Positions 1,641 to 60,116 are shown, numbered from the stretch's first letter. The stretch is 64,000 bases of DNA from a virus (IMGVR_UViG_3300028800_000059:64001-128000), one strand, 5' to 3'. Numbers and translations: made by a program. The notes: a model not told the origin generated them from the sequence alone.

Positions 1641-2453
1641 TTATGTTTCGGATAACAAATCATCCAGGCTCTTGGCCCAGGCACTTCCTATGCCACACAC
1701 TCGCGTCTGGGCTCCAGGGAATTTCTTATCTAGCGCATTGGCTAGATTTCGGACCTTGGTTTGCATTAAAGGATTTTTTGGATTAGGAAAGGCAACTGAA
1801 ACCAAATTTTTTTCTGGATCATAACGTCCTACGGCAAACCAATTATGGGAATTAAGTTTTTCGGCATGACCTTCTTGCCGTCCATCCGCAACATATTCGG
1901 TATCCAATCTGCCGTTTGGATTCATCAACCAAACCGTAGCTGGCTTTCCTTTTTCATGTCCAATTGATAGATATGGATCATTGGCGAAAGAGAAAGAATA
2001 GGACTCTTCTATAGGTTCTTCGAAGCCTTCTTCATCATAAAATTCATCATCCGAAAGCAAATCATCCAAATCTTCTTGGTCCACTAATTCGCCGTACACA
2101 TCATAATCTCCAATATCATTCATAACCCAACAGAAATATAGGAAAATTGGATCGGGATCGTTTTCATCGTCCATCGCGTTAAATCCGTATTGTGAACAGA
2201 TGAAAATTTTCTCGCCTACTTCTTCATCCATATCAAATACAGCCGGCACACTAATTGCTGCCCATGCCAGACATTTACGAATATATTCTAGGGCTGTATA
2301 AGGAGTAGGAAATGGAGTGTCAGTGGATGCCCAGATGGCACCATTTAATTTTGATCTAACATCCTCGTCGTGGATATCAGGGCTTTTGGCCGAGATATCC
2401 AGGACAGGAATAGAAGCCCAATCTTCTTTGAGCCAATCTTTAAAAAGCTTCAT
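1641..2453 (-). CDS. Hypothetical, putative internal head protein
   Basis: Likely start MKLFKDWLKE at 2453 (CTS-like); acidic linker ending PIEE/S separates two modules. Confidence 0.55.
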   Translation of the reverse strand: MKLFKDWLKEDWASIPVLDISAKSPDIHDEDVRSKLNGAIWASTDTPFPTPYTALEYIRKCLAWAAISVPAVFDMDEEVGEKIFICSQYGFNAMDDENDPDPIFLYFCWVMNDIGDYDVYGELVDQEDLDDLLSDDEFYDEEGFEEPIEESYSFSFANDPYLSIGHEKGKPATVWLMNPNGRLDTEYVADGRQEGHAEKLNSHNWFAVGRYDPEKNLVSVAFPNPKNPLMQTKVRNLANALDKKFPGAQTRVCGIGSAWAKSLDDLLSET

Positions 2454-2477
2454 AACAAAAATACCAATCTTTCTCAA

Positions 2478-3470
2478 TTACTGAGTGATAATTAGCGCGC
2501 CGGCCCCATTGCTTGTTGCCGTGATGGGTTGGCCAATTGTCAAATTAGCATTTGTTGCGTCAATGGATGCTGTCAACGTCATGCCATTTGCGATGATGGC
2601 TGAGTTGGCTGGTAGAGCCAATAGAACAACTGAGTTTGCATAAGAATTTTCAGTGTTTGCAAGATTGCTAATGAAGATCGTTGTGTTGCTTGACAATGAC
2701 GAGGCGCTGTTGGTGTTGTTGGCACCAGCAGTTACCAGGTTAGCCGATAGATTGACTGAATCGTTTGCCAAACCATTTGCCGTTGGGAACAATCGAGCAA
2801 TAATGTAACTATTTGCAAGATTGGCCAGGATTTGAATTGATAATGTATTGGCAGTGGATGCCAAAACGTTTGCCTGAGTTGCAAGCGATAGAGTAGTTAC
2901 GGTGTTGCTTGTGTTGGCGATAAGAACGGCGGCTACGTTTGCCAATGAATTTCGGACAATAGTTGCTTGGTTGGCTGTGATACCAGCACTGGTCTGGAAT
3001 GTCGTCAATGGAGTTGTTACGTTGGCATTATTTGGTGCTGTGAAATTGAAGAGAACTCGATTGGCTCCAGCCGATAGACCAGCATAGAATGCCTGAATTG
3101 TTGTTAGGTTGATACCATTTACAACAGCCAGAGTAATGTTGGCATTGCCTGGGATCGTGTTGGCCACCAATTGAACATCATAGGTAACCCATAATCCACC
3201 TGTGGCGCCATTTGCCAGAGTTGGAGAAGACCATTCAACAGAGGTTGGAATGGCTGGCGTCATGCTATTGGCAAGACCACCAATTGTTACCAATTCTTCT
3301 TCGTATCCAATAGCCGATCCTACACCAGTCCAGCTTCCGCCGTCCTTGTGTTTGAAAACCCAGCCCCGTTGTGTGGCAAAAGTGTTTGCAAGGTCGCCAT
3401 CTTTGGCTCCAGCGCGGAGATAAGTAGGTTTCTTGACGGTGACGGCGTTATTTGCAGACCATTGTGGCAT
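2478..3470 (-). CDS. Putative virion structural protein, Ala/Asn/Thr-rich
   Basis: N-terminal ATQRGWV..EELVTIGGL motif followed by an AN-rich beta-type region with very few charged residues. Confidence 0.55.
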   Translation of the reverse strand: MPQWSANNAVTVKKPTYLRAGAKDGDLANTFATQRGWVFKHKDGGSWTGVGSAIGYEEELVTIGGLANSMTPAIPTSVEWSSPTLANGATGGLWVTYDVQLVANTIPGNANITLAVVNGINLTTIQAFYAGLSAGANRVLFNFTAPNNANVTTPLTTFQTSAGITANQATIVRNSLANVAAVLIANTSNTVTTLSLATQANVLASTANTLSIQILANLANSYIIARLFPTANGLANDSVNLSANLVTAGANNTNSASSLSSNTTIFISNLANTENSYANSVVLLALPANSAIIANGMTLTASIDATNANLTIGQPITATSNGAGALIITQ

Positions 3471-3506
3471 AGTAGTATTCTCCTAAATTTAAAAGATTTC
3501 TAATTC

Positions 3507-4007
3507 TTATTTATGTTTTCCGAGGCCGAGACTTCTAATCTTGGCAATGGTAGAAACAGCCCCGGTATGTAAAATTCCAATGCCTCCGGCCTCTCTCCAT
3601 TCGTTTATATTTTTCGCAAAATCGTCTATTAGAACATTAGGGCCGCCTGGTGACACGGCATAATGCTTCTTTTCGGATCGAAGAACTAATTTCACTCGAT
3701 TTCTTCTAATACCAAATCTATCGCACCACAGAAGTTTGCCTTTTTTACTGTTCATGGCATCCCAATTTGCATAAGCCGAGAGAACATAAGTATCAAATTG
3801 TTCCAAAAAACTCCAAAGTTTATCGGCACCGGGCATTGGAGGAAGATTTTTCCAAAAATTTTCGTTGTCTAAAATAATAGGACGATATTTGGTTTTATCC
3901 AATCTCCCATCCGGTCCTACTATTTCTGATGTTGGCCGGCCTAATTCCTGAGCAACTCCTTTATTGAAATCTGCTAAAACTCCATCCAAATCGCAATAAA
4001 AAATCAT
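3507..4007 (-). CDS. 5'(3')-deoxyribonucleotidase-like HAD phosphatase
   Basis: CDLDGVLADF motif I; LIDD motif; K..WC pattern. Confidence 0.85.
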   Translation of the reverse strand: MIFYCDLDGVLADFNKGVAQELGRPTSEIVGPDGRLDKTKYRPIILDNENFWKNLPPMPGADKLWSFLEQFDTYVLSAYANWDAMNSKKGKLLWCDRFGIRRNRVKLVLRSEKKHYAVSPGGPNVLIDDFAKNINEWREAGGIGILHTGAVSTIAKIRSLGLGKHK

Positions 4008-4010
4008 TCG

Positions 4011-5765
4011 TTAGTTACTTCCTTGTGGATTAGTAATTGGTGAACTTGTAAGGTCTTTTTGAATCTGAGTAGGATTGAAAATCACCTTGTCTTTTTTTGA
4101 GCCTAGAACAAGTTTGTTTCCATCTGAGTCTCGGTTATTCAAATCAGCCTTGGACCCTAGAACTATCTTGGTTGATGCCGAAGGGTCTTTCTTGTCGGGT
4201 TGTTTCTTGTTTCTATCCATGAATGATGGAATTTCTGGCATTTTGCCGCTATCATTAGCTTTTGTGGCGCCGTTGTTATTAGCTTTTCCGGCGTGCTTTG
4301 CCTTTGGATCAATTTCATCATTTCCAGATGTGTCGCCAGGAGCCTTTTTTCCTTTGCCGGCAGCAGGAATATTACCTGCTCCTTTTTTAGAAAGAGGACC
4401 TTTTTTGTTCTTGTCGCGATCTGGCCATGATTCATTCACAGGAGGTTTCTTGGCCCATTCTGGACCTAATTTAGATGGACCATTTGGTTTTGCCCATGGA
4501 TTTTCAACCTTCTTAAAGGCACCTAGAATTTTTTTGATTTTAGCTGCCTTGGCTCTGCCTTCTGGTGTTTCGGATTTGGCGCGAATTGCTGCTAGTTTAT
4601 CGGTTACAGATTCGAAAATTTCTCCGACGCCGTGACAGTAGGCACATTCCTTGCCTTTAATATTTCCTTCGCCTTCACAATCCGGACACATATTTGTTTT
4701 TGGAAATGGATCATGTGGAATCGTGGATGGTGATTTTGGTTTTCTACCAGCAACAAATTGATCATAAGGCAACACTTTAAATTTTGGTTCTGCTTTTGGC
4801 TTTGGATAATGGCGGCCTGTTACGTGATGGACTTCTTTTAATCCCTGTCCACCGCTTGCCAAAGAACTTGGCGCTGGATCGTTTTCAACGGCATCAGAAT
4901 CACCTTCGGCAATTCGTGGCTTGATTTCGCTCTTGGCTGCGCGATAAGCGGCACCGCGACTATCTCCACGACTCATGGCATAAGTTCCGTTCTTATCTAC
5001 TGTCGAAAACGAATGAGTGCCTACTTTATTTTTGCCGACATACTTAATTGTGTTATGAGCCATGTCGTCGGCCTTATCGTTTGTGAAACCAACTTTCTTT
5101 TCTCGTGGAGTTGGATTTGCATCTGATTCTTTTACGTATTTGTCGTCATAATTTTGGCCCATATTGGCCATGTCTTTTTCGTCTTTCTTTTCTTGCTCGG
5201 TAGGTTTATGATTTTTTTGCATTCTCTTGGCACGATGGGCCGCCTTCACAGTATTTACAAATCCTTTAAAGCCTTCCTGGATTTTATCCTGGTCGTCCTC
5301 GCTCATTGGTTCATTAGTGTTTGTTTGTGGATTGCTCAAATCCCCAACATATCCAGTATTTTTCTGAGGTTCTTCCACTATTGTTCGTTCATCCAAGCGC
5401 ACATTCGAGATATGTGTTTCATAGGATTTTGGATGCCCAGTTGGATATTTGTCTGTCTGATGATCGAAATGAACTTTGGTTCCATCGACTTTTGTTACGA
5501 CACCTGGAATTTGTCCACCAAGTTTGGTTCGAATTTTATCTCCAACCTTTGGAATATATTTTCCAGCCGCAACATAGTCGGCATGTTCCGTCAAAGAATG
5601 GCGCTTGGCCATTGCTTCGGCAGAATCTTTGTCTTTGTGTGAATGAACTTTGGTTTCGCCAGAGTGATTGGTCGAAACAAAGCGATGTTGCCCGCCTAGA
5701 TCGCCGGCATATCGGACCGAACCTGAGATATTATATTGTTTCTTTTCCCAGGTGTCTGGGTCCAT
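4011..5765 (-). CDS. Modular Lys-rich putative internal head polyprotein
   Basis: KOW/SH3-like segment (KVGDKIRTK..GVVTKVDG), DnaJ-type Zn knuckle (CPDCEGEG..CAYCHGVG), repeated [ILV]xE sites. Confidence 0.5.
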   Translation of the reverse strand: MDPDTWEKKQYNISGSVRYAGDLGGQHRFVSTNHSGETKVHSHKDKDSAEAMAKRHSLTEHADYVAAGKYIPKVGDKIRTKLGGQIPGVVTKVDGTKVHFDHQTDKYPTGHPKSYETHISNVRLDERTIVEEPQKNTGYVGDLSNPQTNTNEPMSEDDQDKIQEGFKGFVNTVKAAHRAKRMQKNHKPTEQEKKDEKDMANMGQNYDDKYVKESDANPTPREKKVGFTNDKADDMAHNTIKYVGKNKVGTHSFSTVDKNGTYAMSRGDSRGAAYRAAKSEIKPRIAEGDSDAVENDPAPSSLASGGQGLKEVHHVTGRHYPKPKAEPKFKVLPYDQFVAGRKPKSPSTIPHDPFPKTNMCPDCEGEGNIKGKECAYCHGVGEIFESVTDKLAAIRAKSETPEGRAKAAKIKKILGAFKKVENPWAKPNGPSKLGPEWAKKPPVNESWPDRDKNKKGPLSKKGAGNIPAAGKGKKAPGDTSGNDEIDPKAKHAGKANNNGATKANDSGKMPEIPSFMDRNKKQPDKKDPSASTKIVLGSKADLNNRDSDGNKLVLGSKKDKVIFNPTQIQKDLTSSPITNPQGSN

Positions 5766-13732: not shown

Positions 13733-14911
13733 TTACTCTTGGAAAAATCCCTCTAACGTCGCATATTCGCTTGATTGTCCAATACGATTTTGTGCTATCT
13801 TGAAATATTTGGGTTCGGCTTCGATGCCATGAAAAATCCAACCGCCATTCTTTGCAGCGATGCCCGTTGATCCAGAGCCCATGAAAGGGTCTAGAACAGA
13901 ACCGCCTTTTGGCGTGACCAGAGTTATGAGATAGCGCATTAGGTCTACTGGCTTGACAGTGGGATGGGTATTTTCTTCGCCACGTTCTTTCTTGGAAACT
14001 TTGGATGAATAGAAAAATCTTGCTGCGGAACCATCATCATTATACGATTCAAAATCAGCACGTTTAGCTACAGTCGAATGAGTAAATCCCTTTGTCATTG
14101 GCTGCCCACCAACCACTTTACCAGATTTGCTCTCTGGAAAATTTTCTAACACTTCCTCGGATCCATCATGGATCACATTGGCAGGCCAACGGCCAGAAGG
14201 AATTTCATATCGATGTTCTTTTGTATTACCAAAAATTGATCGACCACCAGAGGTTTTCACATGAGAACGTAAATGTGTGTTTTGGGCAAGTGTGCCATTT
14301 TCAATTGTAACATGAGAAATTCGACATTCATCTATGTTCAATCCACCAGTTCCATGTTTAAGAACATTCCCTGCCACTGTGTTTTCAGAAAGAGGCTTGC
14401 GAGCCAACACAATGGGCTCTACTGCGGGCTTCAACGCGGTACCCCAACCATCACCCACTTTATGACTTTTAGGAAACCCTGTGCCATACAACCACATGAT
14501 TGTGTCGCGTATTTCAAATCCTGCGTCCTCTATTGCACAAGCCATTCTATGAAAAGTTCTAGTTCCACCAAAAGCCAAGACATGTCCGCCTGGTTTTAGA
14601 ACCTGAAAAACTAATTCCCAGGTTTCTTTGCGAAAAGCAATATCCCCACCATCCCAAGTTTGTCCCATGAAGCCTTTAGAAAGCCTCGCGTAGTTATTCG
14701 ATCCTGCCTTGGCAGCCTTGCCAGTTTTGTTGTCGTCATCCTGAGACGTTCCTTTGAAGCGCGAAACAATCGATGTAAGATGATACGGCGGGTCGGTCAC
14801 CACAGAGTCAACCTGGATGCCTTTGGCGATCATGTCCTTCATGACCTTCAAGCAATCGCCTTCATAAAGATTTATCTGATTATCCATTGGACTTATCTTT
14901 TCGGTCAACAA
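13733..14911 (-). CDS. DNA amino-methyltransferase, beta class (N6A/N4C)
   Basis: DSVVTDPPY precedes VLDPFMGSGST. Confidence 0.9.
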   Translation of the reverse strand: MLTEKISPMDNQINLYEGDCLKVMKDMIAKGIQVDSVVTDPPYHLTSIVSRFKGTSQDDDNKTGKAAKAGSNNYARLSKGFMGQTWDGGDIAFRKETWELVFQVLKPGGHVLAFGGTRTFHRMACAIEDAGFEIRDTIMWLYGTGFPKSHKVGDGWGTALKPAVEPIVLARKPLSENTVAGNVLKHGTGGLNIDECRISHVTIENGTLAQNTHLRSHVKTSGGRSIFGNTKEHRYEIPSGRWPANVIHDGSEEVLENFPESKSGKVVGGQPMTKGFTHSTVAKRADFESYNDDGSAARFFYSSKVSKKERGEENTHPTVKPVDLMRYLITLVTPKGGSVLDPFMGSGSTGIAAKNGGWIFHGIEAEPKYFKIAQNRIGQSSEYATLEGFFQE

Positions 14912-52411: not shown

Positions 52412-54013
52412 CTAAGGTTTGTAGAACACAAACACTGGCTCATATTTTCGATACAATCCATTCACGCGACAAATATTTTTCGTTGTCGCCTTAATATCCC
52501 CATTTTCATCGGTCACTAATCTATTCCCTCCCGGCATTTGGCTCATAGCCATTTTCTCCACGCCGCGATATTCCATGCCTAGATCGGTAAGTATATTGAT
52601 AGAGTCCTGTTCGAGTGGCAGGCGCTCCCCGGAGAAAACCACATCTGCAATATTCCACAAGAGATATCTATCGTTCCGGAGCCAATGGAATGCCGTCCAG
52701 AGTGTAGGTTCCAAAAAGCCTTTTTTCCAGGCATCATATTGTCCAAATTTTTTATAGGATTGTCCTTCATCTTCTGAATAAGCCTCCTTCGAAAAATATG
52801 GTGGGCTAGTGAACACCATATCCACTTTCCCTTTCCACTTCTGGAAGTTTTTGTCCTGAGCAATTTCCTCAGACCCTAACTGATAAATTTCATAGGAATT
52901 CAGATGGGGAAAAAGTGACGAGCCCTTATTAGTTTTATCATTAAAAAAATCAGCCAATTCGTGATATTTCGTCCGGCCGCCCACAGTATCATGATCCCGA
53001 TTAGGATCAGTACCGATATAATGAATGTTCCGATCATCGATAGAAAGAGCGCCAAGAAGACGGCCACCCCAACCAGCAGAAGGGTCATATAAAACCACTG
53101 TCTCATTGTTTTTGCAATGCTCCGTATATTTTCCATAGAGATATTTAGCCGTTAGTGGAGGGAAGTTAGTCGCATACTGACAATACGACACGCGAAACGC
53201 CTTCAGACCAATTGGGAAAAGTTTTTGGCCGTGTTTGAAGACTCGGATATTGTATGTCTTATGTTTGCTGCCCGCCACATTAGTCAGAGCCTTGGCTGGA
53301 ATAATATTCTGTAAAACAAACAAATCAGCCTCATTCAAAAAGAAATTTTTTCGATCTTTGAGTTCCTGATTATATCCTGTGTATGTTGCTGCCTCTTCCT
53401 TGGGCGCAATCCAATAGTCCCATTCTCCATGGGCACGATATTTTTTCTCGAATGTTTGAATCCAATCCTGGGCGTCCCTGGTGCAAGGAAGAAATTCGAC
53501 ACTTTCTTTATCCATAACCTTAGCAGGATTTGAATAGGCATAAAAAGAATCTCGCTTAAAATGCCGCGATGCATAGGTTACGAAGGTGTCTAGGAGGATT
53601 GGGTCGGCAAAGTAATCATAGATAGATCGCCCGGCATCAGGGTCTTTCGTGTAGTTAATACGAGTTTTCATCATGGTTGGAAAGAAACCATTGATTACGC
53701 CCGACATTTCAGACTGTGTGTTGTGAATGATATCGTTGTTGCCAGTCAGTTCATCCTTGACCACGAATTCATTGACTGGATAACCAATCATATGGTTCAT
53801 AAGATCGATCATGGTTTCTTCGGACTTGCCTACAACAGGTGGCGTGCCCAACTTGTCCCAGGCATACACGACCACTTCCCGCAGTTCGACACACCACTGG
53901 CGAAATTCGTCTTTGGACATCCATAGGACCTGTTCAAAGGTCTTGTTGACCTCGTGATTTAACAGATAGGTATTTTTCTCATAGAAAAATTTATTCGCCA
54001 TCAAGGGTTCCAT
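52412..54013 (-). CDS. Amino-methyltransferase-like protein with long N-terminal region
   Basis: YDPSAGWGGRL (motif I variant), IGTDPN, FTSPPY, LWNIAD. Confidence 0.8.
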   Translation of the reverse strand: MEPLMANKFFYEKNTYLLNHEVNKTFEQVLWMSKDEFRQWCVELREVVVYAWDKLGTPPVVGKSEETMIDLMNHMIGYPVNEFVVKDELTGNNDIIHNTQSEMSGVINGFFPTMMKTRINYTKDPDAGRSIYDYFADPILLDTFVTYASRHFKRDSFYAYSNPAKVMDKESVEFLPCTRDAQDWIQTFEKKYRAHGEWDYWIAPKEEAATYTGYNQELKDRKNFFLNEADLFVLQNIIPAKALTNVAGSKHKTYNIRVFKHGQKLFPIGLKAFRVSYCQYATNFPPLTAKYLYGKYTEHCKNNETVVLYDPSAGWGGRLLGALSIDDRNIHYIGTDPNRDHDTVGGRTKYHELADFFNDKTNKGSSLFPHLNSYEIYQLGSEEIAQDKNFQKWKGKVDMVFTSPPYFSKEAYSEDEGQSYKKFGQYDAWKKGFLEPTLWTAFHWLRNDRYLLWNIADVVFSGERLPLEQDSINILTDLGMEYRGVEKMAMSQMPGGNRLVTDENGDIKATTKNICRVNGLYRKYEPVFVFYKP

Positions 54014-54395
54014 ATTCTCTTTCTAATCGTTCTAATGAATCTTGAAGTTTAGCATAGGCCTTTGGTGCTGTCAAATCCATTTTGGAAAGACCTGTACCAA
54101 CACCATCAGTAGGAATAATAACGGTCTGTCCAAGTTTTAAATGTAATTCAATTTGTTTAATGGGAAATATTATTTGATCCCAAAATTTATCAATTTGTGA
54201 ATCCATAAAAAATGATTCGACAGTTCTTTCAGGTTTCCATTTGGTTGGAATTCCTATGGCATTTGGCTCGCCGCGCATTTCTTTTGCCTGACCACCCAGA
54301 CCTCGACGCTGCATATTATCTCCAAACACATAAATTGTTTTGGGATTATCCTGTAGATTTTTTCTTGTAATCCATTTTTGATGTTTGATTGGCAT
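53991..54395 (-). CDS. Conserved phage hypothetical protein
   Basis: YVFGDN..R.G.GGQA..RG.PNA.GIPTK..G.GTGL pattern. Confidence 0.65.
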   Translation of the reverse strand: MPIKHQKWITRKNLQDNPKTIYVFGDNMQRRGLGGQAKEMRGEPNAIGIPTKWKPERTVESFFMDSQIDKFWDQIIFPIKQIELHLKLGQTVIIPTDGVGTGLSKMDLTAPKAYAKLQDSLERLEREYGTLDGE

Positions 54396-55169
54396 TTAAG
54401 CACCTACATTCCAAAATAACGCACCACTTGATGCATACGCCTTTACAAAACTCCAAGCCTTGGCATCATACGTAGGTGCCGAAGGAAACGGAGGAATATC
54501 ATCGCCTTTCACAGGGCGATCAAATTTATATGGCGACACCCAAAGCTTGGCTCGTCCAATCTGTTCCGGTTTCATCTTATGCCCAACCTGCACCACGTTG
54601 AAATTTGCGTTAGGCCAGGCCAATTGCAGACCACGAGAAAGAGTTCCACTTGATCCTACTGTCCAAACCTCTTTGGGTTTGATATCGATTGCCTGCGCGA
54701 CCTTCACAATGGCTTGTAGAATAACAGGGTGTTCCAACCCAAGCGGAAGTACCATTCGTCTAGTAGGCTCCACGATGGCATATTCTCTGGCGCGGGCCTG
54801 AGTCACATTCAACATACCATCAGGAACCCAATGATATTCAGCACCCAAAGCAATTCCTTTTTTCTGATAATCCGTATAATTTTCTGGGTCTCGTTTCGCC
54901 ATGAAAAGAATAGTTCGTTTTCCATATTTCGAACAGGCTGCCGGCAAAGATATTTGGGCATATCCTGTTGCTGGACACGACCCAAAGACCCATTTATCAA
55001 TTTTTGGATAGGCATTAATCAGCGCATCAAGGAAACGAATCTTTGATCCGTATCCAAGTTTATCGTCACGCACTACGTTGATATAACGATCATGATCAAT
55101 CGCAGTGGGTTCCACGTAAGGTTTAGGATATGGATCGTTCCACTTACTTATGTCGAATTGCATCTTCAA
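54396..55169 (-). CDS. Fold-type II PLP-dependent enzyme (ACC deaminase / D-Cys desulfhydrase-like)
   Basis: VVRDD..GSKIR (Schiff-base Lys), GSSGTL phosphate loop, PTYDAK. Confidence 0.8.
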   Translation of the reverse strand: MKMQFDISKWNDPYPKPYVEPTAIDHDRYINVVRDDKLGYGSKIRFLDALINAYPKIDKWVFGSCPATGYAQISLPAACSKYGKRTILFMAKRDPENYTDYQKKGIALGAEYHWVPDGMLNVTQARAREYAIVEPTRRMVLPLGLEHPVILQAIVKVAQAIDIKPKEVWTVGSSGTLSRGLQLAWPNANFNVVQVGHKMKPEQIGRAKLWVSPYKFDRPVKGDDIPPFPSAPTYDAKAWSFVKAYASSGALFWNVGA

Positions 55170-55291
55170 TATCCTCTAGGCGTCGGTGAATTTTTTCAGT
55201 TTCCATAAGTAATCTGACCAACATATGGGGAGTTCCCATCAAATCCTGTTCGGCCAGTTTATTAAACTGTCTCAGAGTAAGTTTTAATTCT

Positions 55292-56521
55292 TCACTCGGC
55301 ATTTTCCATCCTTTGTATTAATTCAGGAGTCAACACAATGTCCACGACCAAATGAATACGATCCTCGGTTCCATTATTGATAGCGCGATGTGGCTTGCGA
55401 ATATCCAGATACCAACATTCGCCTTCTTTCATATTGACAGTGGTTGCCTTGCCATCAAAATCCCAGGACGTAAATTCAACACCAGGATTCGTCACAAGAG
55501 GGAAATGAAAACGCGCAAGTTTTCCAGGTGTCGCACCAAGATCAGGATCAACTTGATCGGTATGTCTTTCAAGTTCTCCGCCACCAGGCTTTAGTTTCAT
55601 TAAGCGAATGCGATGCACGTTGGTATAATCATCCTGTCCCAAAGATTTGAGAATAGGTTTTACGTGTTCCTCAAAGAAAGGCATGATGTAAGTATTTTGG
55701 ATGAAGAATTTTTCGTTCTTATGTTTCTCTTGCCACTTGGCATTCATTTCAATTGGTTTTTCAATGAAATTATAATCATTCTTATATCCACGAAGTGCCA
55801 GGGCACTCCAGGACCGTTCCTTGTTGTAATTGGAATAATGATCGGTGTAACTAATATCGAATCTGCGGCCATCAGGAAGTTGATTGGTAATATGTAATCC
55901 AAAATCTTTAATTGCCTTCCAATTGGCGGCACGAAACAAAACTCGTTTGACTCCAGTTTTTTCTAGTGGACTCAAAACAGGATGTTTACGGGGTTCCCAG
56001 GTTCCAGGCAAAGCGTAGATAGACGCCGGCATAGAATCTTCGCGGAAATAAATTCCCATGATCGATCCATAGGTGTCTATTTTCCCGCCAATATATTTGT
56101 AACCAATGGACAACAACATTTCATGTTTGGCTTGATCTTCACGCCAAGAATAAACCCAGGACGTTCCATAGGTAATCATAAACCAATTTTTGAACATTGC
56201 ATTTGAACAGGCGATGTGAGAATACACATTGTCGCCAGGCTCTTTATGGCCGATCACAACATCATCATAGGCAACGATATTGCCTTTAACCTTGACTCTT
56301 TTGACGCGCCAGATGGGTGTGTCTATACAACCTGTTTCATTAGAAAGTTTCAAATCCCCTTTTGATAAATCTTCGGCTATGCGATTTTTCTTATATTCAG
56401 CAAAGGGATTGCCACAGGCATACTTGTTATATTCGGCATAATGAGCCTCGATGGATTTTAGATAATCCAGGTCATATCCATGTTGCCATGGTTTAGTTTG
56501 TGCTGATAATGGTCCTGTCAT
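55292..56521 (-). CDS. Unknown (remotely GNAT-like) N-domain fused to a 2OG-Fe(II) Asp/Asn beta-hydroxylase-like domain
   Basis: RIRLMKL.PGG..RHTD, RFHFP..TN, GECWYLD.RKPH...N.G..DRIHLVVD. Confidence 0.8.
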   Translation of the reverse strand: MTGPLSAQTKPWQHGYDLDYLKSIEAHYAEYNKYACGNPFAEYKKNRIAEDLSKGDLKLSNETGCIDTPIWRVKRVKVKGNIVAYDDVVIGHKEPGDNVYSHIACSNAMFKNWFMITYGTSWVYSWREDQAKHEMLLSIGYKYIGGKIDTYGSIMGIYFREDSMPASIYALPGTWEPRKHPVLSPLEKTGVKRVLFRAANWKAIKDFGLHITNQLPDGRRFDISYTDHYSNYNKERSWSALALRGYKNDYNFIEKPIEMNAKWQEKHKNEKFFIQNTYIMPFFEEHVKPILKSLGQDDYTNVHRIRLMKLKPGGGELERHTDQVDPDLGATPGKLARFHFPLVTNPGVEFTSWDFDGKATTVNMKEGECWYLDIRKPHRAINNGTEDRIHLVVDIVLTPELIQRMENAE

Positions 56522-57144
56522 GTCGTCTTTATTGTAAGAGTTGATTTCTTATCGGCGGCTTCTAGTTTTTTCATAGCCTTCACTTTTCGCATGATTTTCT
56601 TCATGGTCTTGCGACGTTTTTCTTGTTTGATTTTCAGACTCAATGCCGGCACTCTTTCGGTAAACAAAATGCCATTGCAATGATCAACCTCATGTTGAAT
56701 CAAACGAGCCGTCAGGCCCGAGAAACGTCCTTTCAGCCATACGCCTTTTTCATTCTGCCAAATAGCATCTATCTCTTTGGCGCGTTGCACGTTTAAAAAC
56801 AACATAGGATAACTCAAACATCCCTCACTGTCAAGGAGTTTTTCTTCGCTGGAAACAACAATTTCTGGATTGAAAAATGCCTGGTGCTGTTCATCGGTGC
56901 CGACAACAAAAACTTTGACAGGAACTCCTACCTGGATTGCCGAAAGACCCAATCCCTTATAGTGTCGCATAGTCTGATAGAGCCGATGCACCAATTCTCC
57001 TGGATGCATCTGAGGATTATTGAAATTGAAGTCCTCTGGTACAGTTCTCAAAATTGGATTGTTTTCATCGACTAAATTGAAAAGCGTCAGCGTCTTGGTT
57101 TGATCCTGTGATCCGGTATCTATGCGGAGAAATTCTTCACTCAT
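56518..57144 (-). CDS. def: Peptide deformylase
   Basis: GLGLSAIQVG, EGCLS, QHEVDH. Confidence 0.93.
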   Translation of the reverse strand: MSEEFLRIDTGSQDQTKTLTLFNLVDENNPILRTVPEDFNFNNPQMHPGELVHRLYQTMRHYKGLGLSAIQVGVPVKVFVVGTDEQHQAFFNPEIVVSSEEKLLDSEGCLSYPMLFLNVQRAKEIDAIWQNEKGVWLKGRFSGLTARLIQHEVDHCNGILFTERVPALSLKIKQEKRRKTMKKIMRKVKAMKKLEAADKKSTLTIKTT

Positions 57145-57300
57145 TTTTTTAAGTTCCTTTAACCCATTCAGAATATGTCGTGGCATTACCTGCTAAAATT
57201 TCCTTATCAAATTCTTCTTGTAAAATTTCGTAGAGCGTTTTTTCCAAATCTAACACTGATTCTGAAATCTCACCCAACCAAAAATAATATGGCCACATTT

Positions 57301-59025
57301 TTACACCTTTGTCATTTGAGAAAATTCATTTTTCGTTTCGAATTTAATAGCCGATCTAAATTTATCAAACAGAATATCCGTATGATGACTGATGATGAAA
57401 ATATTCACTTCTTCACCAAATTTTTGAATGATTTTCAAAAGCGCATCCGTGCCTTCCGGGTCCAGAGATGAATCAAAAACTTCATCCATAATCAATAGAT
57501 TCGTTGACACTGAATTTTTCAATTTGGCAATTGCTCGCCATGTGAACAAAAGAGCCAGATCAATGCGTTGTTTCTGTCCTTCTGAAAAACTTTCGTAAGT
57601 AAAATCGTCGCGGTGGCGACTCTTGATTTTTTCATTGAAATTTTCATCCAGCGTGAAATTAGCATAGAAATCCATGTCATCCAGATATTTGTTGACCAAC
57701 TTATTGATCACTGGAATATATTGCTTGATGATTTTTGTCTTCGGCCCATCATCCGACAAAAGATCAACCATGGCCTCATGATAGGAACGCTCATATATCA
57801 TTTCAGTTCTATCAGCATCCAAGGCAGTTAAATCCTTGATGGCATCATCTAATTGAGTTTGATAATCCTGGCCAGTGACAGGAGAGGCCCCTTTTAGGAC
57901 ACTGTTTTCATCTTGGAGTTTTTTGATATATTTTTCAATGGAATTGATTTGTTCATCAATCTTAGCCACTGATTTTTCATATTGAAGAATTTCACTCAAA
58001 ACCTTGGCAATTTCAGATCGGCGTTGTGTAAATTTGCCTAGATCGCTTTTAAGTTTGTCTCGACCTACTTCATATTTGTTCAACTTAATTTTTAAATCTT
58101 GGGTTGATTCCATTTTCTTGATGGGTGGAATTTCCTGTAAACAAGTCGGGCAGTTATCATTGTCTCGATAAAATTTCAATTGTTCTTTGTAAGTTTCAAT
58201 GTTGTGGTCAAATTTTCCACGATACCCTAACATGGCCTCAATTTTGTCGCTGTTTTCTTTTTGATCCAATATCGAATCTTTTAGAATTTTTATGTTATCA
58301 AGTTTGATTTGGCGATTATCAGCCAGGGCAGCGGCTTCGATATCGTGCTTATCAATTTCTTCCTGGTTCTTATCGATCTTGGATTGATTGGAGATTTTCA
58401 TATCCGCCAAATGCTGTTTCAGTAGACGAATTTTTTCATCCAAGAAACTCTTGGCCTTGCTATTATTTTCCAGAAGTTCTTTCAGAGCAATCAACTTCTG
58501 TTTGACCAACAAATTCATTGGCGCAAAAATTTGAATGTCCAAAATATCTTCAATGATGCCACGGCGTGCGCCAGTCGTCAATCTCATAAATGCCGAGGCG
58601 CCTTTGGCCGAACCAAGAATGACAATTTGATCGAAAGTCTTCTTCGACATTTTCAAGATAGACTTTTCCAGGTAATCTTGATAATCGCCTATCTTTGCAT
58701 CTTGTTTGACAAGCACCCCGTTTTTCCAAATCTCAAAAACAGCAGGCTTCAATCCTCGAATGATTTTGTATTTGTTAGTGCCAATGGAAAATTCCAACTC
58801 AACCACTAGTTCTTTTTGGTTGATCGAATTGATTAGCTGTGGCAGATTGATATTACGGAAAGGCTTCTTCCATAGAGCAAAATCAATGGCGTCTAAAATT
58901 TGTGATTTGCCATGCCCATTCTTTCCAACAATCAGAGTCGTGGAACTCTTATCCAAAACAATTTCAGTAAATGAATTGCCTGTGTTTAGGAGATTTTTCC
59001 ACCGTACCACATGAAATTTTATCAT
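57301..59025 (-). CDS. 46: Recombination endonuclease subunit gp46 (Rad50/SbcC-like)
   Basis: GKNGHGKS, CPTC hook, FSEGQKQRIDL, MDEVFDSSLD. Confidence 0.97.
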   Translation of the reverse strand: MIKFHVVRWKNLLNTGNSFTEIVLDKSSTTLIVGKNGHGKSQILDAIDFALWKKPFRNINLPQLINSINQKELVVELEFSIGTNKYKIIRGLKPAVFEIWKNGVLVKQDAKIGDYQDYLEKSILKMSKKTFDQIVILGSAKGASAFMRLTTGARRGIIEDILDIQIFAPMNLLVKQKLIALKELLENNSKAKSFLDEKIRLLKQHLADMKISNQSKIDKNQEEIDKHDIEAAALADNRQIKLDNIKILKDSILDQKENSDKIEAMLGYRGKFDHNIETYKEQLKFYRDNDNCPTCLQEIPPIKKMESTQDLKIKLNKYEVGRDKLKSDLGKFTQRRSEIAKVLSEILQYEKSVAKIDEQINSIEKYIKKLQDENSVLKGASPVTGQDYQTQLDDAIKDLTALDADRTEMIYERSYHEAMVDLLSDDGPKTKIIKQYIPVINKLVNKYLDDMDFYANFTLDENFNEKIKSRHRDDFTYESFSEGQKQRIDLALLFTWRAIAKLKNSVSTNLLIMDEVFDSSLDPEGTDALLKIIQKFGEEVNIFIISHHTDILFDKFRSAIKFETKNEFSQMTKV

Positions 59026-60116
59026 TATGCCGACTCCAATGCCAAGGCATCCGAATGAATTTTACGCATCAGAGATTTTAGTTTCTGTGGGTCTAATTCC
59101 GTCGGACAAGTTGCGTCAATGGTTTCTTCCAATATTGTAACAATGTCTGATGATTTTTCGATCCCTTCTGTGGTGACTGAACCAGATGAATTTGAAGAAG
59201 GAGAATTATCAATATATTTTTCAACGATTGAAACATCGGCAACTCCAGCCTTGTATAGTGAATCTAAAAACACATCAAACCAATCGGGATGTTCCTTTTC
59301 GACAACCACAATTTTTACGTAACAATTTTTAGTATAAGAAAAATCCAACTTATTCAAATTTTCCAATGTCTCTTTTCTGTCGTCATATACAATTTTGTGG
59401 AACATTCGATAGGGATTTTTGATGAACTGTAAATCCAATGTGTCGGTATCCAATACATGAAAGCCACGTGGATCATTCCAATCAGCCCAAGTAATCTCAT
59501 AGGGATTTCCTAGATATGTGACAAGGCCATCCGTGGATCGATGATGAAAATGTCCACTTAGTACCATATCGAATTTATCAAACCATTTTCTTGGAGTAAT
59601 TCCAGTGTGACAAAAATTTCCTTTGTCCATTTCGAAACCAGCTATTTCCAAATGTCCCATTACCAATCGCGCATCAGTTTCACGCAATAGCTTTTCAGTT
59701 TCTCCAATGTTTGTAGGATTAACCCAAGGCAGCAAGATTGTTTTACGCCCATCCAGGTCTATCTCAACCGGGTCTGGATAAATTTTAACATTGGAATATT
59801 CAACGAAAATATCCTCAATGGCATTAGGCGTATTGAATGTTTTCAAAGGACAGTCATGATTGCCTGGAATGTAGATACAATCCACTTCCATTTGTTTAAG
59901 TGGATTGCCAAATCTCTTGTGAATGGTATCCAAAATCTGGAGATTTATGAATTTGCGATGCTCGACAAAATCACCAAGGCAAGCCATTTGCTTTATGTTG
60001 TGATCCTTTAAGTAGGGAAAAAACACATTCTCATAAAACTTGAAAAAGAATTCATTGAAAATTGGCGAAGCCTGGCGCGCTCCAAAATGAAGATCGGTTA
60101 TAATTGGAAGAAGCAT
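59025..60116 (-). CDS. 47: Recombination endonuclease subunit gp47 (Mre11/SbcD-like)
   Basis: TDLHFG, LGD, GNHD, GHLE, SGHFH. Confidence 0.97.
   Translation of the reverse strand: MLLPIITDLHFGARQASPIFNEFFFKFYENVFFPYLKDHNIKQMACLGDFVEHRKFINLQILDTIHKRFGNPLKQMEVDCIYIPGNHDCPLKTFNTPNAIEDIFVEYSNVKIYPDPVEIDLDGRKTILLPWVNPTNIGETEKLLRETDARLVMGHLEIAGFEMDKGNFCHTGITPRKWFDKFDMVLSGHFHHRSTDGLVTYLGNPYEITWADWNDPRGFHVLDTDTLDLQFIKNPYRMFHKIVYDDRKETLENLNKLDFSYTKNCYVKIVVVEKEHPDWFDVFLDSLYKAGVADVSIVEKYIDNSPSSNSSGSVTTEGIEKSSDIVTILEETIDATCPTELDPQKLKSLMRKIHSDALALESA

Follow-up and report, generated by a model that had tools for sequence, protein, structure and literature searches.

A candidate modular pathway for DNA base modification in uncultured T4-like phages, centered on an amino-methyltransferase-like protein

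To our knowledge, the amino-acid-derived hypermodifications of DNA solved so far all start from 5-hydroxymethyl-pyrimidines or, for Mom, from glycyl-tRNA, and enzymes of the type of Pseudomonas phage M6 gp52 are the sole family of pyridoxal phosphate (PLP) enzymes known to act on DNA. When purified, M6 gp52 and ViI gp226 bind PLP and remove the carboxyl group from glycine or serine that is joined to thymidine in DNA; K36 of M6 gp52 is the lysine proposed for the internal aldimine, and ViI gp226 was modeled on the template 1j0a (PMC8989533). Fusions of hypermodification pathway enzymes in metagenomes were reported by Lee et al., NAR 2021/22 (PMC8989533). Here we describe a gene cluster at positions 52,412 to 56,521 of a 64,000-nucleotide stretch of viral DNA, IMGVR_UViG_3300028800_000059:64001-128000, hereafter called the window. 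The cluster encodes a relative of M6 gp52, a two-domain hydroxylase, a small DUF7831 protein, and a 533-aa methyltransferase (MTase)-like protein of the class that depends on S-adenosylmethionine (SAM). An initial annotation, made from sequence alone, had assigned all four genes to one undescribed hypermodification pathway. Three of them are indeed coupled, and we put at about 0.6 the probability that their products form one modular pathway that modifies bases of the phage's own DNA after replication. The DUF7831 protein is likely a passenger, and the three-gene set is not obligate.

The closest described systems are the thymidine hypermodification pathways of M6, ViI and PaMx11 (PMC8989533). 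The window shares with them PHROG 7093, the fold-type-II scaffold and an aligned lysine, and resembles them further in its proposed post-replicative steps on DNA, in tailoring enzymes that can be combined, and in fusions found in metagenomes. It differs in that its genome encodes no dUMP hydroxymethylase homolog, in that identity to gp52 is low, and in that the partner of the PLP enzyme is a SAM-binding amino-methyltransferase-like enzyme, which probably acts on an exocyclic amine of adenine or cytosine rather than on C5 of thymidine. Searches of the 98%-complete genome with PF00303 and PF02511 (ThyA and ThyX) returned no homolog, and the controls matched. The lack of a thymidylate-synthase-type gene closes the known 5-hydroxymethyl-pyrimidine routes, so that a normal base has to be the starting point of the modification. 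Neither a 5-hydroxymethyl-deoxyuridine (5-hmdU) DNA kinase nor an aGPT-Pplase amino acid:DNA transferase appeared when the cluster genes and those of related loci were scanned with Pfam.

Two other phage systems invite comparison. The 5-methylcytosine (5mC) methylase, TET/5mYOX and glycosyltransferase route (PMC8256090) is likewise founded on a methylase, post-replicative, and tailored by a 2-oxoglutarate (2OG)/Fe(II) enzyme; its methylase is of the C5-cytosine type and its oxygenase belongs to the TET/JBP family, whereas the window encodes an enzyme of amino-MTase type, an AspH-type cupin and a PLP enzyme. Phage Mu Mom, which makes N6-carbamoylmethyl-adenine, also places an amino-acid-derived decoration on a purine exocyclic amine after replication, but it is a single enzyme that uses glycyl-tRNA, with no SAM, PLP or 2OG component and no sequence relationship to the proteins described here (PMC13219725).

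The PLP enzyme and its coupling to two partners

The window PLP protein is a member of the M6 gp52 family by both sequence and fold. The profile phrog_7093 matches it over its full length (1.6e-31; residues 30-257 against profile positions 18-279), and M6 gp52, the founding member of the family, scores 2.2e-159 against the same profile. Comparison of the window PLP family with M6 gp52 by hhalign gave a probability of 97.4 and an E-value of 1.2e-11 over 222 columns. K43 of the window protein aligns with K36 of M6 gp52, and the blocks SSGT, PFP..P.YD.KAW and WN[VI]G are common to both. The motifs GSKIR (K43) and GSSGT (S173, G175) are invariant in the family alignment; K43 is the predicted Schiff-base lysine and GSSGT the predicted phosphate loop. 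The AlphaFold model (predicted local distance difference test, pLDDT, 92) has template modeling (TM) scores of 0.77-0.80 to D-cysteine desulfhydrase 4d8w and to the 1-aminocyclopropane-1-carboxylate (ACC) deaminase homolog 1j0a, which is the second-best fold match. The label of an ACC-deaminase-like enzyme, given at first, holds for fold and motifs but finds no match at the level of family sequence: the PALP model scores 16.4 bits against a cut-off of 35. A profile search of PDB sequences with the PLP alignment reached an E-value of 0.055 across the first 60 residues only, and the protein is about 70 residues shorter than its structural matches, whose full-length family runs to about 320-340 aa. 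The protein shares the ACC deaminase/D-cysteine desulfhydrase fold, but is not a member of that family. Elimination or deamination, the chemistry suggested originally, gives way to decarboxylation, which is the closest proven activity (M6 gp52).

Searching longer proteins with the PLP profile identified 14 fusions. Nine have the order MTase-hydroxylase-PLP and lengths of 1057-1191 aa, while the rest are of MTase-PLP, hydroxylase-PLP and PLP-MTase types. The fusions P0244 and P0246 (WP_281721641.1, Nitrosomonas nitrosa) are colinear with nearly the full length of all three window proteins, both N-terminal domains included. The presence of several domain orders means that fusion occurred several times independently, and independent fusion events are strong evidence that the three proteins work together on one substrate. 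Hydroxylase, PLP enzyme and MTase-like protein constitute one functional unit. The suggestion that the four genes are neighbors through shared ancestry only was rejected, since fusions in several domain orders rule it out.

Gene neighborhoods show the same association. At least 572 IMG/VR contigs carry a relative of the PLP protein and at least 584 a relative of the MTase-like protein, and the three genes stand side by side in dozens of contigs from uncultured T4-like phages. A survey from the PLP side covered the 47 viral loci in which the PLP gene is flanked by 4 kb or more in each direction. The MTase-like gene is found in 42 of these, and the hydroxylase gene as well in 24, in three gene orders. 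With MT and HYD standing for the MTase-like and hydroxylase genes, the arrangements are gp46-PLP-MT (18 loci), gp46-HYD-PLP-MT (14), MT-HYD-PLP (6) and HYD-PLP-MT (4). The PLP gene has neither partner at the other five; in two of those it lies beside a gene of the uracil-DNA glycosylase (UDG) family, exonucleases, RNase H and a glycosyltransferase-like gene, and in two others the scanned neighbors gave weak or uninformative matches only. At L094 (5063-7790) and L097 (5066-8123), the PLP gene follows a UDG-superfamily gene and overlaps a downstream gene for a 346-457-aa protein with a weak glycosyltransferase-1 match; exonuclease and RNase H genes surround it, and it lacks an MTase-like neighbor.

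The corresponding survey from the MTase side covered 32 fully flanked loci. The MTase-like gene occurs with both PLP and hydroxylase genes at 10 loci, with PLP only at 7, with hydroxylase only at 4, and with neither at 11. On a tree of 50 MTase-like proteins, the presence of PLP changes at least six times and that of the hydroxylase at least eight times. These counts and changes, together with a constant SAM motif, identify the MTase-like enzyme as the core of the module and the PLP enzyme and hydroxylase as optional add-ons, often gained and lost.

The methyltransferase-like protein and its neighbors in the cluster

The C-terminal half of the 533-aa protein (about 285-533) is a class-I SAM-dependent amino-methyltransferase-like domain. 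Its motif I, DPSAGWGGR at 310-318, and motif IV, SPPY at 403-406, are both invariant in 26 homologs, and the AlphaFold model (pLDDT 83) has a class-I methyltransferase fold. The description of an SPPY-type MTase with an atypical SAM loop, DPSAGWGG (310-317), is borne out, as are all the other motifs quoted in the initial annotation, each of which was found and is invariant in the family alignments. The PADLOC model MTase_II matches at 7e-10, in the motif IV-VIII half only, and many close homologs carry a precomputed PF01555 match. Like beta-class N4/N6 MTases (PF01555; Thermus TTHA0409, PDB 2zig), the protein has a motif IV region SPPY..(K/R).Y...Q and the catalytic half that follows it. Unlike them, it has the permuted motif order I then IV, an atypical GWGGR motif I, a 280-aa family-specific N-terminal domain, and a sub-cut-off match to half of the model. 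The nearest structures to the MTase domain are the amino-methyltransferases Trm11 and TrmN (Z 15), with many families tied at Z 12-15. A profile search of PDB sequences with the MTase alignment gave marginal matches at most, and searches with PADLOC and NCBIfam returned generic type II methylase models plus a weak mad2 match for one fusion, and nothing else.

The N-terminal domain (1-281) is conserved and specific to the family, with 195 representative clusters among 1.84 billion proteins, and nearly always stands ahead of the same MTase domain. The whole protein has more than 2,200 homologs in metagenomes. When searched by tblastn against the GenBank/INPHARED phage collection, it found no full-length relative, only partial matches of about 25-31% identity and at most 49% coverage (the best-covered at about 26% identity). 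Within this collection, the lineage carrying the gene seems to be without cultured representatives. Some MTase-like proteins are longer: P0260, P0261, P0268, P0270 and P0287 (725-771 aa) and P0315 (829 aa) bear C-terminal extensions of 190-320 aa. In P0315 this extension forms a divergent PLP domain of fold type II, which hhalign relates to the window family with a probability of 85 and which has a weak cysteine synthase match. The other five matched neither the PLP nor the hydroxylase profile, and that of P0261 had no match among PDB sequences.

The C-terminal part of the hydroxylase (about 199-395) matches PF05118, Asp_Arg_Hydrox, at 5.6e-13 and 49.5 bits against a cut-off of 22.6, and its putative metal triad, H320 and D322 in HTDQVD plus H378, is invariant among orthologs. 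It is classed by sequence as an AspH-type 2OG/Fe(II) cupin hydroxylase. Over its whole length, including the N-terminal domain, the protein lines up colinearly with the central section of the tri-domain fusions from bacteria; in the phage collection, tblastn found Mycobacterium phage LilMcDreamy gp4 only, matching the C-terminal part. The N-terminal domain (about 170-195 aa) had been described as remotely GNAT-like. Here the HxD..H hydroxylase assignment stands but the GNAT label finds no supporting match: residues 1-196 have no Pfam match up to E = 1, and Atlas feature and structure searches returned nothing GNAT-like, from an Atlas model that is itself poor (pLDDT 0.55).

The fourth protein matches PF25176 (5.9e-43, 145.9 bits against a cut-off of 27). 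Its nearest Atlas clusters are all DUF7831, comprising viral DUF7831 clusters and fusions with DUF4326 or YspA/SLOG domains. It had been counted as a conserved small component of the module, but it belongs to a widespread phage family that is not conserved in the cluster: besides the window, one of 160 related viral loci (L062) has DUF7831 in the slot between the PLP and MTase genes, and it is absent from all fusion proteins. On these grounds it was rejected as a pathway component, and it is likely a passenger in a variable slot. Elsewhere the slot holds a PAPS-reductase-domain gene, other small open reading frames (ORFs), or nothing. The PAPS-reductase-domain (PP-loop ATPase) genes lie in two other T4-like contigs, L012 (8687-9433) and L016 (3716-4396), with PF01507 matches of 1.6e-41 and 7.4e-40. 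A further PAPS reductase gene, at 2407-3450 of L001, is 1.4 kb upstream of a ParB-MTase-PLP gene in Erythrobacter phage vB_EliS_R6L. Such a gene could be a further optional tailoring enzyme.

The candidate target, the proposed chemistry and its rivals

Genomic contexts of the PLP family point to DNA as the target. In gp1 of Erythrobacter phage vB_EliS_R6L (APZ81766.1), motifs I and IV of a ParB-fused DNA methylase are separated by an inserted PLP domain 42% identical to that of the window. As in the window, the PLP domain is paired with a (S/C)PPY methylase whose motif order is I then IV and whose motif I reads DP[SF]AG..R; R6L gp1 differs in being a single polypeptide with a ParB domain, in lacking a hydroxylase, and in having a methylase that is only a distant relative of the one in the window. 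The PLP gene of Microcystis phage Mae-JY30 comes immediately after an ORF annotated as ParB, and this ORF has a match to the motif IV region of the MTase family. Integrases or resolvases are present at those bacterial fusion loci that were examined, and some of the 1057-1191-aa fusions, WP_281721641.1 for one, lie in islands of this kind; one fusion lies directly after an Mrr-nuclease/helicase gene, one near a type I restriction-modification system, and type IV CRISPR genes are present at a further locus. We infer that DNA modification is the best-supported role of the module, on the strength of PLP homology to M6 gp52, links to ParB methylases, and mobile, restriction-type islands. The initial annotation had left the choice between DNA and tRNA or protein open, and the evidence favors DNA.

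Several of these loci have features of their own. In L014, from a Bauldia litoralis metagenome-assembled genome, a 1203-aa protein with Mrr_cat_2 nuclease, ResIII helicase and HA-repeat regions (2148-5759) is encoded just upstream of a 702-aa MTase-PLP fusion that lacks a hydroxylase. An integrase and a resolvase are encoded close by, and the arrangement is reminiscent of a restriction-modification pair whose modification enzyme is non-standard. Each bacterial fusion gene is preceded by a gene that overlaps or nearly abuts its start (L180 6375-7385, L009 4658-5635, L181 1750-2397, L011 5859-6533, L014 6008-6691). These preceding genes fall into two unrelated families, of about 330 aa ahead of fusions of the P0244/P0246 type and about 220 aa ahead of fusions with shorter N-termini, and they have no match in Pfam, PHROGs or PDB sequences and no homolog in the window genome. 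A second PLP subfamily, about 37-39% identical, travels with two conserved proteins, of 380-402 aa and of about 334 aa (phrog_13881), in a changed gene order (L005 5798-8858, L017 5635-9502, and L004). At L005 the trio adjoins MazG, dNMP kinase, a thymidylate-synthase homolog and dCMP deaminase. It may be another uncharacterized hypermodification set.

In the scheme we propose, the founding step would be alkylation of an exocyclic amino group, adenine N6 or cytosine N4, by the MTase-like enzyme by means of SAM and the SPPY pocket; it is this pocket that suggests an exocyclic amine as the target. The group transferred would be the 3-amino-3-carboxypropyl of SAM rather than its methyl, leaving an amino-acid handle on the base. 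The AspH-type oxygenase could then hydroxylate the side chain and the M6-gp52-type PLP enzyme decarboxylate it, both steps being optional, which would yield a positively charged aminopropyl or hydroxy-aminopropyl base. Since the PLP enzyme needs a primary amine and MTase plus PLP without hydroxylase is common, the amine would most simply come from the amino-acid end of SAM. The scheme accounts for all four partner combinations (MTase alone, with PLP, with hydroxylase, and with both). Aminocarboxypropyl transfer followed by tailoring has precedents, TYW2 then TYW5 in wybutosine and MccD then MccE in microcin C. Likened by description only, these follow the logic proposed here, in that an MTase fold moves the amino-acid part of SAM before 2OG hydroxylation or PLP decarboxylation; they differ in that their substrates are tRNA or a peptide-nucleotide, not DNA, and in that the MccE decarboxylase has a different PLP fold.

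Confidence varies with the level of detail. A modular post-replicative DNA pathway founded on SAM-dependent transfer is, taken whole, the best explanation, at slightly better than even odds. Aminocarboxypropyl transfer followed by hydroxylation and decarboxylation of the side chain is the most likely mechanism only in a tentative sense. More tentative by a shade is the full picture, in which 3-amino-3-carboxypropyl is put on an exocyclic amine of adenine or cytosine in double-stranded DNA and then converted to a (hydroxy)aminopropyl base by the AspH-type and gp52-type enzymes. The purpose of the base modification is probably escape from host nucleases.

A number of observations weigh against this proposal. 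The PLP neighbor is absent at 15 of the 32 MTase-side loci, so the neighborhood comparison across T4-like phages foreseen earlier gives a divided answer, strong from the PLP side (42 of 47) but not from the MTase side. Two near-complete genomes with the MTase-like gene (95%, and 100% with terminal repeats) contain no PLP homolog anywhere, while positive controls matched. Partner sets are interspersed on the tree of 50 proteins, where close relatives differ, and the SAM motif YDPS[AS]GWGGR is identical with and without partners; the MTase-like enzyme may therefore simply methylate. The PF01555 match of the 533-aa protein itself (1.2e-4) reaches 22.6 bits against a cut-off of 26.7 and covers profile positions 1-106 of 221 only, and since the PLP protein is only about 25% identical to M6 gp52, its substrate may differ. 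On a rival reading of plain methylation with helpers, the 533-aa enzyme would be an ordinary N6-adenine/N4-cytosine DNA methyltransferase, and the PLP enzyme would act on an alpha-amino small molecule rather than a DNA-bound group. It could, for example, destroy inhibitory S-adenosylhomocysteine, or decarboxylate SAM so that the MTase fold transfers aminopropyl, as spermidine synthases do. SAM and S-adenosylhomocysteine are themselves alpha-amino acids, and fusion, or insertion of PLP inside a methylase, fits a role at the level of the cofactor as well as one at the level of the substrate. We nevertheless regard this explanation as unlikely, as amino acids bound to DNA are the substrates of the closest proven relatives of the PLP enzyme, a hydroxylase fused between MTase and PLP domains has no obvious role as a cofactor helper, hydroxylation of an N-methyl group would remove it, and the genome has a separate ordinary DNA methylase.

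Two further alternatives retain a multi-step pathway or give up DNA. The module might modify tRNA, rRNA or protein during infection, for example a glutamine amide or lysine amine. The best structural neighbors of the modeled MTase domain are tRNA m2G methyltransferases, which makes an RNA target conceivable and so counts against DNA, and PrmC/METTL5-type enzymes; one fusion is labeled TrmN6 by JGI, AspH relatives hydroxylate proteins, and the genes adjoin peptide deformylase. The structural scores are, however, tied across many methyltransferase families, and peptide deformylase is absent from most related loci. The relationship of the PLP enzyme to DNA-acting enzymes, the related PLP genes that are fused to or adjoin ParB DNA methylases, the others that lie among nucleotide-metabolism and replication genes, and the bacterial contexts, which resemble restriction-modification and mobile-element islands, make a non-DNA target quite improbable. 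Less probable again is a methyl-first oxidative route, the amino-base counterpart of phage 5mC-TET hypermodification, in which the amino group is methylated, the N-methyl is oxidized to a hydroxymethyl or iminium, and the PLP enzyme then attaches an amino acid to this carbon or trims one there. The fusion order MTase-hydroxylase-PLP could mirror such an order of steps, but the pairing of MTase with PLP in the absence of a hydroxylase is frequent, at 18 of 47 and 7 of 32 loci and in the ParB fusions, and MTase plus hydroxylase without PLP, found at 4 of 32 loci, would give an unstable hemiaminal. AspH-type enzymes are generally known to act on side-chain carbons, not N-methyl groups. In its favor, methylase, 2OG oxygenase and tailoring enzymes are a proven phage scheme for cytosine C5 (PMC8256090).

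Genome setting and significance

The source record is a 177,318-bp IMG/VR virus, 98% complete, with 41.6% GC content and 212 of 244 long ORFs on the minus strand. Its gp46 is about 44% identical to that of the nearest cultured phages, Synechococcus phages S-CREM1 and S-SZBM1 and Methylophilales phage Melnitz, and a homolog search of the 98%-complete genome found no psbA. Given this distance from cultured phages and the absence of psbA, the phage is an uncultured marine T4-like phage, probably of a heterotrophic host. A search of the phage collection for DNA nearly identical to the window returned zero matches. The four genes are tightly packed and co-oriented downstream of gp46 and def, as originally described (Table 1).

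Table 1. Genes in and around the cluster, with a separate DNA methyltransferase of the same window
Feature	Position	Strand	Remarks
gp47	59025-60116	minus	upstream of cluster
gp46	57301-59025	minus	upstream of cluster
Peptide deformylase (def)	56518-57186	minus	PF01327, 1.7e-36; between gp46 and hydroxylase gene
Hydroxylase	55292-56521	minus	409 aa; two-domain, AspH-type C-terminal part (predicted)
52-aa ATG ORF	55144-55302	minus	overlaps hydroxylase stop and PLP start
Fold-type-II PLP enzyme	54396-55169	minus	257 aa from TTG; 255 aa as called in protein collection
DUF7831 protein	53991-54395	minus	134 aa; PF25176
SPPY methyltransferase-like protein	52412-54013	minus	533 aa; core enzyme
Ordinary beta-class N6/N4 DNA methyltransferase	13733-14911	minus	PF01555, 6.2e-33, full length

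The def and hydroxylase genes overlap by 4 bp and the DUF7831 and MTase genes by 23 bp, and the PLP gene ends directly where the DUF7831 gene begins. Packing is interrupted once, by 122 bp that separate the hydroxylase gene from the PLP gene; this gap is occupied by the 52-aa ORF, which may be a local small gene or due to chance. Among related phages the hydroxylase-PLP spacing varies, from an overlap in L006 to 150 bp in L008. A promoter and terminator scan found no more sites than in shuffled sequence. Searches of the phage's own genome for SAM helper genes, a methylthioadenosine/S-adenosylhomocysteine (MTA/SAH) nucleosidase (PF01048) and a SAM decarboxylase (PF02675), gave no match for either. 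The separate, ordinary MTase reported earlier was confirmed as a full-length PF01555 protein.

Literature searches on the module, on aminocarboxypropyl or aminopropyl DNA bases, on hypermodification of adenine or cytosine, and on DUF7831 turned up no account of this system. The PLP family is already known, as is post-replicative combinatorial tailoring, in both thymidine and 5mC-TET hypermodification. What sets the module apart is its founding enzyme, with that enzyme's N-terminal domain, an oxygenase of AspH type, and the lack of a hydroxymethyl-pyrimidine precursor. The module offers a different entry point to hypermodification, through a SAM-binding amino-methyltransferase fold. If the proposed scheme is true, this would be the first SAM-aminocarboxypropyl transfer to DNA and the first amino-acid-derived hypermodification without a 5-hydroxymethyl-pyrimidine start. 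If the base is only methylated, the role of a PLP enzyme inside a DNA methylase remains an answerable question. Natural variants with one, two or three enzymes, together with single-chain fusions, make a ready-made series for step-by-step dissection. The module is also abundant, in at least hundreds of IMG/VR contigs and with thousands of metagenomic proteins in the PLP and MTase families. The hypermodifications of phage DNA determine which nuclease defenses, restriction and CRISPR among them, are effective against a phage, and they have been a source of useful enzymes and modified bases.

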